Source of the DNA: Thermomicrobiales bacterium
Lineage (GTDB): Bacteria; Chloroflexota; Chloroflexia; Thermomicrobiales; UBA6265
NCBI GenBank assembly: GCA_051952485.1
Contig: JBQCJS010000151.1
Location: forward strand, 1-27,079
Length of the DNA: 27,079 nt
Direction of reading: 5' to 3'
Shown in pieces: positions 11,672 to 17,340 of this stretch; within the stretch, counting starts at the first letter, position 1; the number at the start of each line of letters is the position of its first letter. The notes beneath the pieces are model-generated. The model saw only the letters and a list, made by a program, of their open reading frames with translations. It ran no database searches and was not told the DNA's origin. The translations under genes were made by a program, and so were the position numbers.

Positions 11672-12856
11672 TCAGACCGCGCTGAGCTGCCTGATCCGCG
11701 CCACCACGGACGCCAGGGTATCCACCGCGTCCTCGATCTCGTCCAGGGAATTGCCACGGCCCACGGTGAGGCGCAGGCTAGCCCGCGCCTCCTGTTCGGA
11801 GAGGCCCATTGCCAGCAGGACGTGACTCGGTTCCGAATTGCCGGTCGTGCAGGCCGAGCCCGCCGAGCCCTCCACTCCATCCATATCCAGGGCCAGGAGC
11901 GCCGTCTCCCCCTGCACGCCCCGAATCGAGATGTTGAGATTGTTGGGCAACCGGTCGCCATCGAGTTCGGGGCCGTTCAGCGTGACATCGGGGATCGCGC
12001 CGCGGATGCCGTCCCACAGCGCGTCGCGCAGCGCCCGGGTATGGGCGTTGTAGGCATCGCGGGCGACATCGGCGCGCTGCAGGGCCTCCGCCATGCCCAC
12101 GATGAGGGGCACATTCTCGGTGCCGCCGCGTCGCCCCGACTCCTGGCCTCCGCCGTCCTGCTGGAAGCGGAGGGGCGTCCCCTTCCGCACGTAGAGGATG
12201 CCCACGCCCTTCGGCCCGTAGAACTTGTGCGCCGACAGCGCGAGCAGGTCGACGCCCACTGCCTGGACATCGAGGGGGAGCGCCCCTGCGATCTGCACGG
12301 CGTCCGTATGGAACGGGATGCCCCGCTCTCGCGCGATGGCGGAGATCGCTTCGATCGGCTGGATGGAGCCGACCTCGTTGTTCGCGGCCATCACCGAGAT
12401 GAGGCAGGTCTCCGGACGGATCGCGGCGGCCACCGCCTCGGCGCTGATGATCCCCCGGGCGTCGCAGCAGACACGTGTGACCGCGAACCCCTGCTCCTCC
12501 AGCGCATCCGCGGCGTGAAGCACCGCATGATGCTCGATAGCGGTGGTCACGATGTGCGGCATCGGCCCGTCAGGATGCGCCAGGCGCGCCGCCCAGGCGA
12601 CCCCTTTCAGCGCGAGGTTGTCGCTCTCCGTCGCGCCGCTCGTGAAGACAATCTCGGAAGGGCGACAGGCGAGGACCCGCGCGACCGTTTGCCGGGCGCG
12701 GTCCAGGGCAGCGCGTGCATCCTGGCCCACCCGGTAGATACTGGATGGGTTACCGAACGTCCCCGAGAAATAGGGGATCATCGCCTGGACGACGGCAGGA
12801 TCGACCGGCGTGGTGGCCGCGTGATCGAGGTAGATGAGGTCGCTTCCGTAGGTCAT
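11672..12856 (-). CDS. iscS: Cysteine desulfurase, IscS/NifS (group I)
   Basis: YLDHAATTP, FTSGATESDN, TAIEHHAVL, FHTDAVQ, PLP lysine SAHKFYGPKG, catalytic SAGSACTTG. Confidence 0.96.
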   Translation of the reverse strand: MTYGSDLIYLDHAATTPVDPAVVQAMIPYFSGTFGNPSSIYRVGQDARAALDRARQTVARVLACRPSEIVFTSGATESDNLALKGVAWAARLAHPDGPMPHIVTTAIEHHAVLHAADALEEQGFAVTRVCCDARGIISAEAVAAAIRPETCLISVMAANNEVGSIQPIEAISAIARERGIPFHTDAVQIAGALPLDVQAVGVDLLALSAHKFYGPKGVGILYVRKGTPLRFQQDGGGQESGRRGGTENVPLIVGMAEALQRADVARDAYNAHTRALRDALWDGIRGAIPDVTLNGPELDGDRLPNNLNISIRGVQGETALLALDMDGVEGSAGSACTTGNSEPSHVLLAMGLSEQEARASLRLTVGRGNSLDEIEDAVDTLASVVARIRQLSAV

Positions 12857-12888
12857 GCTGATCCAGCCTCACGGCATGAGAACGACAA

Positions 12889-12924
12889 AGCCACCCATCT
12901 CACCGGACCGGGAGACGGGTGGCT
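12889..12924 (-). terminator. Stem-loop with U-rich tail between the Rrf2 gene and iscS
   Basis: Minus strand AGCCACCCGTCTC...GAGATGGGTGGCT: 13-bp stem whose single mismatch is a G.U pair only on the sense strand, followed by TTGTCGTT. Confidence 0.6.
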
Positions 12925-12936
12925 GGCAGGCAGGCG

Positions 12937-13404
12937 TCAGGAGACGGCGGTGGACGCCGGCATCAGCGGCTCGCTCGCCGGAGCCCCGGCTCCCTTGCGG
13001 GCGATGAGGTCCGCCAGGGTGGTGGAATCGAGCGCCTCCGCGATCGAATCGCGGACCTTCAGCCAGATCGGCCGGGTCTCGCAGCCATCGATCAGCGGGC
13101 ATGTCTGCTCCGTCAGGTCCTCGGAGACGCATTCCATCGGCGCGACGGGCCCCTCCATCACGCGATAGACATCCCCGATGCGGACCTCCTCCGGCTTGCG
13201 CGAGAGCGTGTAGCCGCCGTGGGCTCCGCGCTTGCTTTCCACAAGCCCGGCCCGGCGCAGCGGCGCGATCAGTTGTTCGAGATACGCGGTAGGAACCGAC
13301 GATTCCTTGGCAATTTCGGTGATGGACATCGGACCGTCGCCGTAGTGGTGGGCGAGCGCCACCATTGCCCGTACTCCATATTCACCCCGCGTCGAGACTT
13401 TCAT
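12937..13404 (-). CDS. Rrf2 family transcriptional regulator (IscR/CymR-like) with three C-terminal Cys
   Basis: MKVSTRGEYGVRAM start behind GGAGG, YLEQL, GLVESKRGAHGGY, EGP; C92, C102, C108. Track start 13479 is too far upstream and lies in the promoter. Confidence 0.95.
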   Translation of the reverse strand: MKVSTRGEYGVRAMVALAHHYGDGPMSITEIAKESSVPTAYLEQLIAPLRRAGLVESKRGAHGGYTLSRKPEEVRIGDVYRVMEGPVAPMECVSEDLTEQTCPLIDGCETRPIWLKVRDSIAEALDSTTLADLIARKGAGAPASEPLMPASTAVS

Positions 13405-13450
13405 GCTGTGGACCTCCGGAGGGGGCGAGACGGCGGATATATTCCCTGCA

Positions 13451-13479
13451 ACATTACTCGGGATTGGCCGATCCGTCAA
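13451..13479 (-). promoter_or_regulatory. sigma70-type promoter for Rrf2-iscS with an overlapping imperfect inverted repeat
   Basis: Minus strand TTGACG (13479-13474), 17-nt spacer, TAATGT (13456-13451); AATCCC-N13-GGGAAT straddles the -10. Confidence 0.7.
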
Positions 13480-13497
13480 TGGTCCTGAGAATCATTC

Positions 13498-14751
13498 CTA
13501 TCTTCCCGGGCGCGGACGGAACGTGTCGGCGATGGCCTGCTTCCAGTCGTCGGGCAGGCTCGCCCGCTGCGAGAACGGTCCGGGAGCGATCTGCCGATAC
13601 AGGTGCACAAAGCGATCGGCGGTGAAGATGCCCCGATACAGGCCATCCTCCGTCACCGGCACCGCCCAGCGATTGGTTTCGTTCATCTGCTTCTGCACAT
13701 CGTAGATCGAATCGTCGATATCCGCGACATGGATGGCGGAATCCATCAGGTCCCCCACCAGGGCATCGCTGTTGCCCCCCCGCAGCGCCTCCAGCAGGTC
13801 GGTCCGCCACAGCATCCCGAGCACGTAGCCGTTCTCGGTGACGACGATGTCGCGCGGACCGCCCCGCAAGGCGAACGTGACCGGACGTTCCGGTGAGATG
13901 CCTCCCATGTCCCACAGGGCGTAGGACCCTACCCGCAGCTTCCGCATCGCGGTCTCGACCCGCACGACGCGGCCCTCCGCCTGGGCTGCGATCAGCACGA
14001 AGATGCCCATCGCGCCGACCGGGATCGAGCGTGTCCAGACCCCGATCCCGATCATCACGATCGCGAGGCCGGTTCCCAGCAGGACTGCCACGCGGGTGGC
14101 GCGCTGGCGCCCCATGGATGGACTCAGCGCCGCCCGGAGGACCCGGCCACCATCCATCGGAAAAGCCGGGAAGAGATTGAACGCGAAGAGAAAGAGATTC
14201 GTCAGCGCGAGGTAGCTTACGAAGGAGGCCGGGGTCATCGCCCCGTACAGCTCGCCATCCGGCACGAGCGCGTCCATTCCCAGCGTGGTTCCGAGCAGCA
14301 CCATCGCCGGCAGCAAGGCGACAAAGAGCGCCAGGTTCATCGCCGGGCCGGCAAGGGAGACCATGAGTTCCGCGCGCGGGGTCTCCGGTGCCTGTTCGAT
14401 GCGGGCGACCCCGTTGAATGGCCAGAGCGTGATGTCGAGCACCCGGATGCCGTACTGCTGGGCCATCGCGCAGTGCCCGAGTTCGTGGAGCAGCACCGAG
14501 AAGAAGATCGCCACGACGAACAGGCATCCGAGCACAAATGCGCCGATCCCGCCGTGCGGCCCGAATCCCCACTGGTAGACGACCCAGAGGAAGACGAGCA
14601 CGAACGTGGGATGGACGTTGACATCGACGCCGAAGAGTCGGCCGATATGGTAGGCGCGGAAGATGCCCAGCCGGAGACTCGCTTGCCCACGAGGGCGACG
14701 GAAGAACGAACGACCGGTGCGGCGAGCCTTCGTGTCGCCACTGACGACCAT
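13498..14751 (-). CDS. Site-2 protease (M50) with C-terminal CBS-like domain pair
   Basis: IGRLFGVDVNVHPTF, SVLLHELGH, TLWPFNGVA, VSLAGPAMN, FNLFPAFPMDGGRVLRA, then a soluble CBS-like region (VGDLM...VPVTEDG). Start uncertain (ATG 14751 or slightly downstream); track start 15039 overlaps rpoN. Confidence 0.92.
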   Translation of the reverse strand: MVVSGDTKARRTGRSFFRRPRGQASLRLGIFRAYHIGRLFGVDVNVHPTFVLVFLWVVYQWGFGPHGGIGAFVLGCLFVVAIFFSVLLHELGHCAMAQQYGIRVLDITLWPFNGVARIEQAPETPRAELMVSLAGPAMNLALFVALLPAMVLLGTTLGMDALVPDGELYGAMTPASFVSYLALTNLFLFAFNLFPAFPMDGGRVLRAALSPSMGRQRATRVAVLLGTGLAIVMIGIGVWTRSIPVGAMGIFVLIAAQAEGRVVRVETAMRKLRVGSYALWDMGGISPERPVTFALRGGPRDIVVTENGYVLGMLWRTDLLEALRGGNSDALVGDLMDSAIHVADIDDSIYDVQKQMNETNRWAVPVTEDGLYRGIFTADRFVHLYRQIAPGPFSQRASLPDDWKQAIADTFRPRPGR

Positions 14752-14815
14752 GGTACCAAGATTGCGTGGACATCCGGGAACCCACGCCTTCACAACCACT
14801 ACCCACTGGCATTTG

Positions 14816-14829
14816 TTTCTGTACAGAAA
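14816..14829. repeat. Perfect 14-bp palindrome TTTCTGTACAGAAA, candidate operator
   Basis: Exact self-complementary AT-rich sequence in a GC-rich genome, 5 nt from the sigma54 motif. Confidence 0.6.
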
Positions 14830-14834
14830 TGGAT

Positions 14835-14850
14835 AGCAAGACGCTTGCCA
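14835..14850 (-). promoter_or_regulatory. sigma54 (-24/-12) promoter motif oriented toward the S2P-CBS gene
   Basis: Minus strand TGGCAAGCGTCTTGCT versus consensus TGGCACG-N4-TTGC(A/T): one mismatch, correct GG-N10-GC spacing. Confidence 0.7.
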
Positions 14851-14874
14851 TCGTGGTCGGGCGACACCTATACT
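14845..14874 (+). promoter_or_regulatory. sigma70-type promoter for rpoN
   Basis: TTGCCA (14845-14850), 18-nt spacer, TATACT (14869-14874), about 100 nt upstream of the rpoN ATG. Confidence 0.7.
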
Positions 14875-14981
14875 CTGCTCATGCCGGACGACACCACACC
14901 TGCCCCCATTCCGACACACCCAGCCTTGCGGCCCGCTGATGCGATCGCTCGTTCCAGCTCCGCGTCTCCAAGGAGCATTCG

Positions 14982-16460
14982 ATGAGTTGGATGGAAGCGA
15001 GCTACGAGTATGGCCAGGAAATGCGGGCCTGGGTTTCACCGAGCCTGATCGAGGCCAATTACATCCTCAGCCTTTCCCAGCAGGAGTTGCAGCAGGTGAT
15101 CGCGCAGGAGATGGCCGGCAATCCTGCCCTCGAGATGGATGACCGCCCGACCTGCCCGACCTGCGGCGGGGTGCTCGATGGCTCGTGGTGCTCCACCTGC
15201 ATGATCGATGTGCGCGTCCGCAACGAGGAATCGACCTACGACTCCTGGGAGGACTTCCCCGAGCAGGCCATCACGTCGGTGGCGAGCGGTCAGGACGACT
15301 CCGACTTCGATCCCATGACGCTGGTGGCATCCAGCGAATCCCTCATCGACCAGATCCTCTCCGATGTTCGCACCATCCTCGACGACCGGGGCGCGGCGAT
15401 CGCCGAATACCTGCTGGAATCGCTGGACGAACGCGGGTTTCTCACCCATTCCCTCGACGAGATATCCGGCCTCACCCGGATCGAAGAGGACGAGCTTCAG
15501 GCCGTGCTCGACGTCATTCGCGATGTCGCGCCGGTGGGAGTCGGCGCCCACGACCTGCGGGAATGCCTCCTCCTCCAGACCTCCTACCTCATCGCGACCG
15601 GCTATGAGGTGCCACCCGCGACGATCCCGATCATCGACCGGGCCCTGACGGAATTCGGCTCCCACAAGTACGGCCAGATCTCACGGGATCTGGGGATCTC
15701 GATCGAGGAGATCGAGACGGCCCGGGACTTCATCCGCGAGCATCTCAATCCGTTCCCGCTCCAGTCCGGGCAGGGGCGGACCTGGCGCAGCCCTTCCGAA
15801 TCGGCCTACGTCGCTCCCGATGTGGTGATCTCGCTCAAGGACGGCGAGCTGTCCGTGGAGGTGATCGACAGCAAGTACTTCCACCTCCGCACGAACGCCC
15901 TCTACGACCAGCTTTCGGGCCAGTTCGCGCGCCGCAAGTCGATTCCCCAGCGGACGGCCCCGGTGCCGGAAGCCGTCCGAGATGCCGCCACCACGGTCTC
16001 GAGCGAGGACAAGGATCACGTCCGGCTCTACACCAACCGTGCGCGCATGTTCATCTCCAACATCCAGCAACGGCGCGACACCCTGCTCCGCATCAGCCAG
16101 TGCATCTGCGAGCTTCAGGAGAGCTTCCTGCGCGGCGGCGTGCGCGAGCTGCGTCCCCTGACCCGCGCCGTGGTCGCGCAGCAGGTCGGTGTGCACGAAT
16201 CGACGGTCAGCCGGGCGACGGCGAGCAAGTACGTGATGCTGCCGAACCGCAAGGTCATTCCCTTCTCGGACTTCTTCACGCCATCGCTGAGCACGAAGGA
16301 CATCATCAAGGAACTGATCGTGGAAGAATCGCGGAAGGGCACCTCGCTCACCGACCGCAAGATCTGCGACCTGCTGCTCCAGCGCGGGGTCCGCATCGCC
16401 CGCCGGACGGTGGCGAAGTACCGGGCCGAACTGGGCATCCTGCCCTCGACCATGCGGTAG
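14982..16460 (+). CDS. rpoN: RNA polymerase sigma-54 factor
   Basis: LSQQEL..NPALE region I end, ESLDERGFL, GVGAHDLRECLLLQ, HTH PLTRAVVAQQVGVHESTVSRA, intact RpoN box ARRTVAKYR; AGGAG RBS. Confidence 0.97.
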   Translation: MSWMEASYEYGQEMRAWVSPSLIEANYILSLSQQELQQVIAQEMAGNPALEMDDRPTCPTCGGVLDGSWCSTCMIDVRVRNEESTYDSWEDFPEQAITSVASGQDDSDFDPMTLVASSESLIDQILSDVRTILDDRGAAIAEYLLESLDERGFLTHSLDEISGLTRIEEDELQAVLDVIRDVAPVGVGAHDLRECLLLQTSYLIATGYEVPPATIPIIDRALTEFGSHKYGQISRDLGISIEEIETARDFIREHLNPFPLQSGQGRTWRSPSESAYVAPDVVISLKDGELSVEVIDSKYFHLRTNALYDQLSGQFARRKSIPQRTAPVPEAVRDAATTVSSEDKDHVRLYTNRARMFISNIQQRRDTLLRISQCICELQESFLRGGVRELRPLTRAVVAQQVGVHESTVSRATASKYVMLPNRKVIPFSDFFTPSLSTKDIIKELIVEESRKGTSLTDRKICDLLLQRGVRIARRTVAKYRAELGILPSTMR

Positions 16461-16471
16461 CGGCTGGACGC

Positions 16472-16513
16472 AACGGGGCGGCGGCAGGACTCCCATCCTA
16501 CCGCCGCCCCGTT
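16472..16513. terminator. Stem-loop between convergent rpoN and livF
   Basis: AACGGGGCGGCGG...CCGCCGCCCCGTT 13-bp stem plus AGGA/TCCT; continuous 18 bp with one G.U pair on the minus strand; no U-tract either way. Confidence 0.65.
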
Positions 16514-16542
16514 CTGCCCCCACCCCGGGCGATCCGCCGCGA

Positions 16543-17340
16543 TCATCCTTCGCCGAGATACGCCTTCCGCACCAGGTCGTTCTGCATCAGCGCCCTGCCC
16601 GTATCTGAAAGGACGATCTGCCCGGTCTGGATCACGTAGCCGCGATCGGCGATCGCGAGCGCCATCAGGGCGTTCTGCTCGACCAGGAGCACCGGCGTCC
16701 CCTGCTGGTTCACCTGCTTCACGATCTCGAAGATCTGTTCCACCAGGATCGGGGCAAGACCCATCGAAGGTTCGTCCAGCAGCAGCAGGCGGGGCTTTGC
16801 CATCAGCGCCCTGCCGATCGCCAGCATCTGCTGCTCACCCCCCGACAGCGTACCCGCCTTCTGGGCGACGCGCTCCTTCAACCGTGGAAAGAGATCGAAG
16901 ACCCGCTCCAGGTCGGCCGGATCGACCTTGCCGTGCACGAAGGCGCCCATCTCCAGGTTCTCCAGCACGGACATACGCGGGAAGACCCGGCGCCCCTCCG
17001 GGGACTGGGCAATGCCGGTGGCCGCGACCTTGTGCGCGGGCAATCCGTTGATCTTCTTCCCCTCCAGGGCTATCTCCCCGTTCCGCGGCGAGAGCAGTCC
17101 GGAGATCGTCTTCAGCGTCGTACTCTTGCCCGCGCCGTTCGCCCCGATCAGGGTCACGATCTCGCCCGCGTTCACCGTGAGCGAGATGCCCTTCAAGGCG
17201 TGGATCTGCCCGTAGTAGGTGTGGACGTCGCGCAGTTCCAGCATCGGTGCGACACCCGACGAGGACACGTCCGGGGTGCCAGGGGGCTGGATGGGAGCCG
17301 TGGAGCCGGTCGGGGTGGCTGTGGTCGAGGACGCGCTCAT
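16543..17340 (-). CDS. livF: Branched-chain amino acid-type ABC transporter ATP-binding subunit
   Basis: GANGAGKST, PEGRRVFP, LSGGEQQMLAIGRAL, LLLDEPSMGLAP, VEQNA; ATG overlaps the livG stop. Confidence 0.96.
   Translation of the reverse strand: MSASSTTATPTGSTAPIQPPGTPDVSSSGVAPMLELRDVHTYYGQIHALKGISLTVNAGEIVTLIGANGAGKSTTLKTISGLLSPRNGEIALEGKKINGLPAHKVAATGIAQSPEGRRVFPRMSVLENLEMGAFVHGKVDPADLERVFDLFPRLKERVAQKAGTLSGGEQQMLAIGRALMAKPRLLLLDEPSMGLAPILVEQIFEIVKQVNQQGTPVLLVEQNALMALAIADRGYVIQTGQIVLSDTGRALMQNDLVRKAYLGEG

Follow-up and report, generated by a model that had tools for sequence, protein, structure and literature searches.

The rpoN gene of a soil Thermomicrobiales bacterium (Chloroflexota) was studied in a window of 27,079 nucleotides, by which we mean the whole stretch of DNA that was analysed. 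A spacer of 230 bp separates rpoN from a divergent metalloprotease gene, and the genes and predicted elements of this region are as follows:

13498-14751, - strand: M50 site-2-type metalloprotease with a C-terminal CBS domain, 417 aa (Pfam Peptidase_M50 and CBS)
14751-14766, + strand: weak sigma54-like site TGGTACCAAGATTGCG, 11 bits, directed toward rpoN
14816-14829: perfect 14-nt palindrome TTTCTGTACAGAAA, on the predicted sigma54 start site
14850 to 14835, - strand: predicted sigma54 -24/-12 element TGGCAAGCGTCTTGCT, with GG at 14849/14848 and GC at 14837/14836
14845-14850, + strand: TTGCCA, -35 box of the predicted rpoN promoter, complement of sigma54 positions -26 to -21
14869-14874, + strand: TATACT, -10 box of the predicted rpoN promoter
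14982-16460, + strand: rpoN (sigma54, 492 aa; Pfam Sigma54_AID, Sigma54_CBD and Sigma54_DBD)

Among the best 120 matches of a protein search, the homologues of the rpoN product are named sigma-54 and come from Thermomicrobiales MAGs, and an AAGGAG sequence (14970-14975) lies 6 nt 5' of the rpoN ATG. The divergent product scores 78.5 bits for Peptidase_M50 and 36 bits for CBS, and its translation contains HELGH and NLFPAFPMDG, which correspond to the HExxH and NxxPxxxxDG motifs. Its start, the ATG at 14751, was picked by codon-usage scoring, with alternative in-frame GTG codons at 14798 and 14792. In its domain architecture, which joins an M50 core that has both motifs to CBS, the divergent gene resembles M50 proteases of the SpoIVFB type that carry a CBS domain. 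In the metatranscriptome, short assembled contigs fell inside rpoN at 90-98% identity, and none lay over the spacer or the protease gene.

A hexamer shared by two predicted promoters

On the rpoN side, TTGCCA-N18-TATACT (14845-14874, + strand) agrees with the sigma70 consensus at 10 of 12 positions and is the only sigma70-like site that our promoter scan returned in 13000-17000; as shuffles gave 0.6, this match is not significant alone. The predicted start lies near 14881-14883, leaving a leader of about 100 nt. TATACT dominates among the intergenic -10 hexamers of the genome, with 163 copies (152 intergenic, and 109 facing a gene start at a distance of at most 300 nt), whereas TATAAT has only 34.

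On the opposite strand, TGGCAAGCGTCTTGCT matches the sigma54 -24/-12 consensus (TGGCAC-N5-TTGCW) at 15 of 16 positions, with the canonical 10 bases between GG and GC and, as the sole mismatch, A for C at -21. The element is intergenic, lies on the same strand as the protease gene and 84 nt 5' of its ATG, and would start transcription near 14824, toward that gene. Using a PWM whose weights approximate the published consensus, we obtained 17.1 bits for this site, compared with 19.1 for the consensus itself, which places it seventh in the genome. The bare motif TGGCA-N6-TTGC has 18 copies in the genome, close to the roughly 24 calculated from base composition, and so proves nothing alone; PWM score, location and spacing controls were used in place of bare motif counts. 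The PWM gave 12 matches of at least 16 bits in the genome, and 11 of the 12 are intergenic, although intergenic DNA is only 21% of the genome by our own gene calls. Intergenic matches of at least 15 bits numbered 18 when the two blocks stood at their canonical distance, and 4-11 when that distance was shifted. The genome also encodes at least one activator, a protein with Response_reg, Sigma54_activat and AAA_lid domains (PF00158, 247 bits, at C36), together with a fragment of a second enhancer-binding protein, an AAA_lid piece at a contig end. Searching with exact words, we found no activator-binding dyad above background that was common to the 18 best intergenic sigma54 sites, and no conserved word where an activator site would be expected.

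The initial annotation had read the six base pairs 14845-14850 both as TTGCCA, the -35 of TTGCCA-N18-TATACT on the + strand, and as the -24 end of TGGCAAGCGTCTTGCT on the - strand, and a direct reading of the letters confirms this. The hexamer is thus common to the predicted sigma54 -24 element and the rpoN -35 box, and coding for both elements demands each of its two departures from consensus: without the A at sigma54 position -21 the -35 box would lack its TTG, and the C in fourth place of the -35 box supplies the GG of the -24 element. Among relatives, where the base at -21 is A, a -10 box stands 17 or 18 nt away in 57 of 62 loci; with another base at -21, this is the case in 0 of 19. Loci that have no -10 box at 17 or 18 nt return to the canonical TGGCAC/T in the sigma54 site.

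A few further sequences in the spacer deserve mention. The weak + strand site TGGTACCAAGATTGCG may be a decayed distal promoter; families f3 and f4 have stronger + strand sites, ending in GATTGCG, at the matching place, about 85-110 nt from the - strand site. As for the palindrome at 14816-14829, about six other genera have words like CCTGTACAGG on the side of the protease gene, 90-160 nt from the sigma54 site.

Conservation of the overlap among Thermomicrobiales

The decisive support for the predicted sigma54/-35 overlap is its conservation in relatives. Our survey covered 108 rpoN upstream regions from the order, whose genomes are related and are not independent samples. The initial annotation had pointed to orthologous rpoN loci as the place to look for a divergent M50-CBS gene and a GG-N10-GC motif over the -35 box, and this is what we found there: the composite of a sigma54 site over a -35 box, followed by a -10 box, is present at 59 of the 108 loci, in 27 genera and 3 families, and the protease gene is divergent in 55 of these 59. 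The -10 box stands 17 nt from TTGCCA in 47 of the composite loci and 18 nt in the other 12; it reads TATACT in 49, and TATAAT, TATAGT, TACACT or TAGACT in the rest. The sigma54 site itself occurs as 28 distinct 16-mers among the 59 loci, with TGGCA and TTGC invariant. At the first 14 syntenic loci, all keep a TGGCAAG-N4-CTTGCT-like site on the same strand and in the same register, with a variable spacer.

When each of 26 genera is represented by a single locus, the three boxes reach up to 2 bits per column, and the -35 box TTGCCA has 2.0 bits in each; the spacers and flanks carry mostly 0.1-0.4 bits, and the spacer within the sigma54 element 0.3-0.7. In the rpoN and protease leaders of these genera, the only conserved words were the rpoN start (ATGGA) and the recurrent CTGTACAG. 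Genome-wide, the -35 box is weak, TTG being found at 17 or 18 nt in only 16 of 149 intergenic TATACT sites. As most TATACT promoters do without it, the -35 box may be less important than we have supposed; if so, it would be chiefly sigma54 that keeps TTGCCA invariant.

The arrangement is also tied to the rpoN context. In genome G096 the composite lies 181 nt 5' of rpoN, as TGGCAAGAATCTTGCG with TTGCCA-N17-TATACT. Of 19 other places in the relatives that were examined for their copy of AGCAAG-N4-TTGCCA, only one adjoins an M50 gene, on a contig that ends before rpoN (genome G184); the remaining places have neither a TATACT box nor an M50 gene, which shows that the -10 box goes specifically with rpoN. 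When the criterion is relaxed to a sigma54 site of at least 12 bits, 101 of the 108 rpoN loci have one. These include a different configuration in the more divergent rpoN lineages of the order, where a site of 18-19 bits lies on the same strand as rpoN at 27 loci, and the divergent gene often encodes an activator. By chance, a match of at least 16 bits would be expected about 0.001 times per 450-nt region (calculated from the 12 matches in 7.9 Mb scanned), yet most of the 108 loci have one.

The protease gene and other readings of the site

The site could serve just the protease gene, as its activator-dependent promoter, and overlap the -35 box only because the divergent region is compact, with no effect on rpoN. 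The protease gene is indeed the divergent neighbour in nearly all composite loci (55 of 59), its ATG is 84 nt from the site, and that strand offers no TATACT-like box. In genus g4, which lacks rpoN, TATACT or TATAAT stands upstream of the protease gene instead. Nevertheless, we consider this reading rather unlikely. The register of the overlap, with 17 or 18 nt to the -10 box, is fixed in 27 genera while its surroundings drift. Furthermore, the site remains beside rpoN where another gene has taken the place of the protease: in three genera the composite is kept and the protease is replaced by a co-directional hydrolase, leaving no divergent gene to transcribe, and in one other genus the sigma54 site faces MoeA. 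Protease orthologues that are unlinked from rpoN, or that belong to genomes without rpoN, have no site. The persistence of the site without the protease, and its absence from unlinked proteases, argue that the conserved core is a sigma54 site on the rpoN promoter, of which the protease gene is, on this comparison of loci, a usual but dispensable passenger. The initial annotation had proposed a feedback switch that couples sigma54 level to the protease; the architecture behind that proposal holds in the 59 loci, but the hydrolase, MoeA and unlinked cases show that the coupling to the protease is looser than it implied.

A second possibility is that AGCAAG and CTTGC form a palindromic operator, so that a dimeric factor on the -35 box regulates rpoN and sigma54 does not bind. 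The core of the element is quasi-palindromic, with perfect 5-bp arms here (GCAAG-N3-CTTGC, in 14835-14850) and 6-bp arms in many relatives (GCAAGA-W-TCTTGC), and the G at -20 and the C at -16 hold about 1.1-1.8 bits, above what we expected for sigma54 promoters. However, a GCA...TGC dyad is inherent in the sigma54 consensus, and the arm pair -20/-16 varies on one side without compensation, whereas TGGCA and TTGC never vary. A symmetric factor would leave the one-ended TGG unexplained. Moreover, relatives have the same core with an asymmetric TGGCAC end, in either orientation and without a -35 overlap, at 18-19 bits, and a site of at least 12 bits is found at the 101 loci mentioned above. We therefore regard an operator in place of a sigma54 site as improbable. 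It is scarcely credible that we are dealing with a hairpin or bidirectional terminator at the inverted repeat, or with a chance match: a scan does give a 9-pair stem (14852-14832, - strand) followed by a T-rich tail, but the stem has no compensatory changes among relatives, the terminator was rejected because both flanking genes diverge from the hairpin and there is nothing to terminate, and the chance rate is far below the number of loci that have a site.

A putative feedback on rpoN and its relation to known systems

Based on these results, the reading that we favour, and hold to be probable, is that of a composite back-to-back promoter, in which a sigma54 closed complex holds down rpoN and activator firing clears the site. 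The sigma54 element would direct sigma54-RNA polymerase toward the protease gene on the - strand, and the housekeeping-sigma promoter TTGCCA-N18-TATACT would transcribe rpoN. Because both holoenzymes would need the same six base pairs, they could not occupy the DNA together, and since a sigma54 closed complex is stable and silent in the absence of an activator ATPase, it would hold down rpoN transcription. This repression would grow as sigma54 accumulates, which is negative feedback. Once an enhancer-binding protein of the response-regulator type fires the complex, the site would be vacated, the protease gene transcribed and the rpoN promoter freed for a moment. The overlap thereby probably lets sigma54 throttle its own synthesis. 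From the arrangement of the two sites we infer binding, the start sites and mutual exclusion, as well as how strongly and in which sense rpoN would be affected.

We also put forward, more tentatively, an extended form of this composite promoter, in which the sigma54 complex plugs the rpoN promoter until an activator releases it, and in which the orientation of the site flipped during the radiation of Thermomicrobiales. The idle complex would cap sigma54 synthesis, and each firing would both transcribe the divergent gene and open a window for rpoN, so that sigma54 supply would track demand. With a core as nearly palindromic as GCAAGA-W-TCTTGC, a few mutations in the flanks may have sufficed to turn the site round. 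If this is true, lineages switch between a sigma54-driven rpoN, with the site on the rpoN strand and a divergent activator gene, and a sigma54-occluded rpoN, with the site on the opposite strand and over the -35 box. The difference in orientation of rpoN-linked sites between lineages offers a case for studying how regulatory logic changes sign. More generally, the locus could serve as a compact, testable example of a sigma factor that senses the level of its own holoenzyme, and mutations should be able to separate its two functions, since the sigma70 promoter does not include the -12 GC and the sigma54 site does not include the -10 box. The survey is also a first outline of sigma54 promoters in Thermomicrobiales.

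Several known systems share parts of this arrangement. In promoters of the glmY type in Enterobacteria, sigma54 and sigma70 promoters overlap perfectly, run in the same direction from a common start and serve one gene. The two promoter classes share bases in Thermomicrobiales as well, but the pair is divergent and serves two genes. Negative autoregulation is known for rpoN1 of R. etli and rpoN2 of B. japonicum. In R. leguminosarum, too, rpoN is reported to be negatively autoregulated, according to the part of PMC3538637 in which the observation is cited. As in these rhizobia, the level of sigma54 in Thermomicrobiales is predicted, from the cis architecture, to feed back negatively on its own gene. 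Unlike in the rhizobia, which are Alphaproteobacteria and in which the observations are genetic, this architecture is explicit and conserved, and the neighbours of rpoN are not lptB, hpf or ptsN. A survey that mentions neither Chloroflexota nor Thermomicrobia (PMC12316311) reports sigma54 promoters before rpoN, indicating positive autoregulation, as more frequent than expected in groups that include Bacilli, Clostridia, Planctomycetia and Proteobacteria. The site in the window likewise adjoins rpoN, and the 27 loci of the more divergent lineages do have theirs on the rpoN strand; in the window, unlike in those cases, the site points away from the gene and overlaps a sigma70-type promoter, so that the predicted sign is negative.

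The closest parallel is found in E. coli. Unlike other sigma factors, sigma54 forms a stable silent complex on DNA. Zafar and co-workers (PNAS, in 2014) reportedly described how sigma54-RNA polymerase occludes sigma70 promoters that overlap its sites in E. coli. Such repression by binding competition was demonstrated in vitro and in vivo for argT, chaC, mdfA and patA (Schaefer et al. 2015, PMC4551910), and experimental proof of occlusion comes only from that species (PMC4551910). As in E. coli, a -24/-12 site with the consensus GC at -12 lies over the footprint of a -35/-10 promoter, and a silent closed complex would compete for it. The Thermomicrobiales promoters differ in standing back to back and sharing exactly the -35/-24 hexamer, and whereas the E. 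coli cases are scattered in one species, this arrangement of predicted sites is kept across an order of Chloroflexota. Furthermore, the gene that would be occluded is rpoN itself, unlike in E. coli, so that the circuit would close on the sigma factor. Sigma54 has been proposed to have begun as a repressor of RNA polymerase (PMC4551910); in this little-studied phylum, the rpoN promoter appears to incorporate that silent complex.

The shared hexamer between rpoN and the protease gene

In the fragmented metagenome-assembled genome under study (G000, order Thermomicrobiales, phylum Chloroflexota; 813 contigs, 86% complete, 67.6% G+C), rpoN and a protease gene diverge from a 230-bp spacer on contig C151. 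The region comprises the following features:

11672-13365, minus strand: Rrf2-family regulator and class-V aminotransferase (cysteine desulfurase-like), by Pfam; 132-nt gap after the protease gene
13498-14751, minus strand: M50 metalloprotease with CBS domain, by Pfam; HELGH and NLFPAFPMDG motifs intact
14982-16460, plus strand: rpoN (sigma54), with all three sigma54 Pfam domains; AAGGAG 6 nt 5' of the ATG

The Rrf2 regulator and aminotransferase genes may be co-transcribed with the protease gene. On the plus strand of the spacer, TTGCCA (14845-14850) is followed after 18 bases by TATACT (14869-14874), and the reverse complement of 14835-14850 reads TGGCAAGCGTCTTGCT. The initial annotation, which had placed a sigma54 site for the protease on the -35 box of rpoN, was exact in its bases: TTGCCA-N18-TATACT and TGGCAAGCGTCTTGCT overlap in the shared hexamer, and a promoter scan recovered the former as a sigma70-like site. 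TTGCCA/TGGCAA strikes a compromise: it stands between TTGACA and the TGGCAC of the opposite strand. The C in position four of the -35 box provides a G of the -24 GG, and the A at sigma54 position -21 provides the first T of the -35 TTG.

Other elements were observed in this region. The start predicted for the sigma54 promoter falls within a perfect palindrome, TTTCTGTACAGAAA (14816-14829), perhaps an operator or a hairpin in the leader; in six genera (g3, g7, g18, g32, g36 and g41), words resembling CCTGTACAGG are found on the protease side, at 90-160 nt from the sigma54 site. A weak sigma54-like site, TGGTACCAAGATTGCG (11 bits; 14751-14766, plus strand), is directed at rpoN and borders the start codon of the protease gene. 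It could be the decayed remnant of a second promoter for rpoN; at the corresponding place, families f3 and f4 show sites of 12-17 bits that end in GATTGCG. Within sigma54 itself, 15153-15200 (residues about 58-73) encode a zinc-ribbon-like CxxC-N8-CxxC insertion C-terminal to region I. Its four cysteines occupy the identical position in 120/120 of the best homologues (57-93% identity); judging from these alignments, the insertion is fixed in the sigma54 clade concerned.

Conservation and linkage of the site across the order

In a first set of 40 relatives, a divergent protease gene was found at 14 of 28 rpoN loci. All 14 had a TGGCAAG-N4-CTTGCT-like site on the protease strand, with differing spacers, and most also had TTGCCA-N17/18-TATACT. 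For 192 genomes of the order Thermomicrobiales, we then compared the positions of exact-pattern matches with those of rpoN, and added 80 upstream regions for a total of 108. The check proposed with the initial annotation, namely a conserved divergent M50-CBS gene together with a motif over the -35 box, bore out the proposed architecture: the composite is present at 59/108 loci (27 genera, 3 families), 55 of them with the divergent protease. At 49 of the 59, the -10 box reads TATACT, and at the remainder TATAAT, TATAGT, TACACT or TAGACT; the spacing is 17 nt (47 loci) or 18 nt (12 loci), and the sigma54 site itself occurs as 28 distinct 16-mers. With one representative for each of 26 genera, information content reaches 2.0 bits at all six bases of TTGCCA, 1.8-2.0 bits per column in GCAAG, and 2.0 bits at four bases of TATACT (1.4-1.5 at the other two), against mostly 0.1-0.4 bits per column in spacers and flanks. 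Among loci with a protease-facing site of at least 12 bits, 57 of the 62 with A at -21 have a -10 box 17/18 nt away, as against 0 of the 19 carrying C, T or G there. Genus g23 has a canonical TGGCAC or TGGCAT site next to rpoN; it faces MoeA, and the nearest TATACT is 28 nt away. Two genomes (G013, G036) are unpublished; published congeners (G151, G032 and others) show the same pattern, and no claim therefore depends on those two alone. Based on these comparisons, we regard the predicted composite promoter architecture as real and conserved.

That the site is a promoter for the protease only, with rpoN unaffected, is possible but unlikely. The protease orthologue persists in five genomes without rpoN (96-99% complete, no Sigma54_DBD), where it lacks a conserved site; in one genus among these, g4, TATACT or TATAAT stands upstream of the protease gene instead. 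In four genomes (G015, G021, G029, G032) with the protease gene and rpoN on separate contigs, a strong sigma54 site is absent at the protease gene. In G037 (contig C25), 3.5 kb separate the protease gene from rpoN; upstream of the protease gene stands TGGCATAATTCTCGCG, a 10-bit degenerate copy of the MoeA-facing site adjoining rpoN in g23, which may be a relic of rearrangement. Three f2 genera (G037, G042, G043) have the full composite downstream of a co-directional alpha/beta hydrolase gene ending 17-115 nt from the site, which leaves the sigma54 element without a gene to transcribe. Kept with rpoN and missing at protease genes that are unlinked from it or lie in rpoN-less genomes, the site travels with rpoN, and we consider this the strongest comparative argument for an action on rpoN itself.

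A sigma54 site of at least 12 bits lies within 450 nt of rpoN at 101/108 loci. In rpoN lineages 42-54% identical to that of the window, the rpoN strand carries a site of 18-19 bits, typically TGGCACGATTCTTGCT, at 54-410 nt upstream of the gene (L019, L022, L025, L135, L142, L147, L153 and others, in f1 and f5), often beside a divergent gene for an activator with response-regulator and Sigma54_activat domains. This orientation predicts sigma54-dependent rpoN, that is, positive autoregulation, in these more divergent lineages. Eight loci of g33 and g39 (L088-L094, L097) have face-to-face sigma54 sites on opposite strands, 33 nt apart, with nearly coinciding predicted start sites and no sigma70 composite, and in family f4 the composite is accompanied by another, rpoN-directed site some 100 nt farther out. 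The shared core, GCAAGA-W-TCTTGC, comes close to a perfect palindrome, so that, speculatively, a few flank mutations would suffice to change its orientation. The same symmetry could be that of an operator for a dimeric regulator, but we find this reading improbable: variation in the arms is one-sided and uncompensated, and relatives have canonical asymmetric TGGCAC versions in either orientation. In the promoter scan, the inverted repeat was additionally flagged as a hairpin; that the site is just a hairpin, a terminator or a product of chance is hardly credible.

Sigma54 sites and -10 boxes in the genome

Genes of G000 were called with a self-trained codon-usage model, and the whole genome was scanned with a sigma54 weight matrix, its weights only approximating the consensus in the literature. 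On its own, the pattern TGGCA-N6-TTGC shows no enrichment (18 copies, against roughly 24 calculated from composition). The window site scores 17.1 bits, seventh in the genome. Eleven of the 12 matches of at least 16 bits are intergenic, compared with 21% of the genome by our gene calls, and intergenic matches of at least 15 bits number 18 at canonical spacing versus 4-11 with the -12 block moved by 1-5 bases. This bias and spacing dependence suggest roughly ten genuine sigma54 promoters, the window site being one of the best. Behind the best intergenic sites (contigs C311, C487, C396, C637, C705, C42, C153, C63 and C304; L031-L040) lie genes for a pentapeptide-repeat protein, an S41 peptidase, DUF892, a Cu/Zn superoxide dismutase, a PLD-family protein, DUF2382/DUF2171, a cupredoxin, a solute-binding protein and a response regulator; the candidate regulon appears to concern stress or the envelope. 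Another site of the TGGCAAG...CTTGCA type, scoring 17.6 bits, falls within a called gene close to a contig end (C590, 2451-2466; L043). The genome encodes one response-regulator-type enhancer-binding protein and a fragment of a second. Exact-word searches of the 18 best intergenic sigma54 sites and of the leaders in 26 genera found no activator-binding site.

TATACT, the dominant -10 hexamer, is clearly the -10 box of this organism: 152 of its 163 copies fall between genes, 109 are directed at a gene that starts within 300 nt, and TATAAT occurs only 34 times genome-wide. TTG -35 boxes are uncommon across the genome: just 16 of the 149 intergenic TATACT sites have one 17/18 nt upstream, a spacing that is modestly favoured, and promoters of this genome seem to rely on the -10 box.

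Proposed control of rpoN and its precedents

Most likely, the sigma54 and sigma70-type holoenzymes would compete for the shared hexamer and exclude each other, which would hold rpoN under negative feedback until an activator, by firing the sigma54 promoter, released the rpoN promoter. We infer these consequences from the properties of the sigma54 closed complex and from experiments in E. coli, and consider them plausible for rpoN; the one RNA run yielded only short contigs, all inside rpoN. In E. coli, sigma54-RNAP represses overlapping sigma70 promoters through binding competition (PMC4551910), and in R. leguminosarum, rpoN is reported to be negatively autoregulated (PMC3538637). A 2025 survey describes sigma54 promoters preceding rpoN in several classes and mentions neither Chloroflexota nor Thermomicrobia (PMC12316311); in the papers searched, we found neither sigma54 promoter occlusion nor rpoN autoregulation described for Chloroflexota. 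The composite represents a variant that joins two known themes, promoter occlusion by sigma54 and the autoregulation of rpoN.
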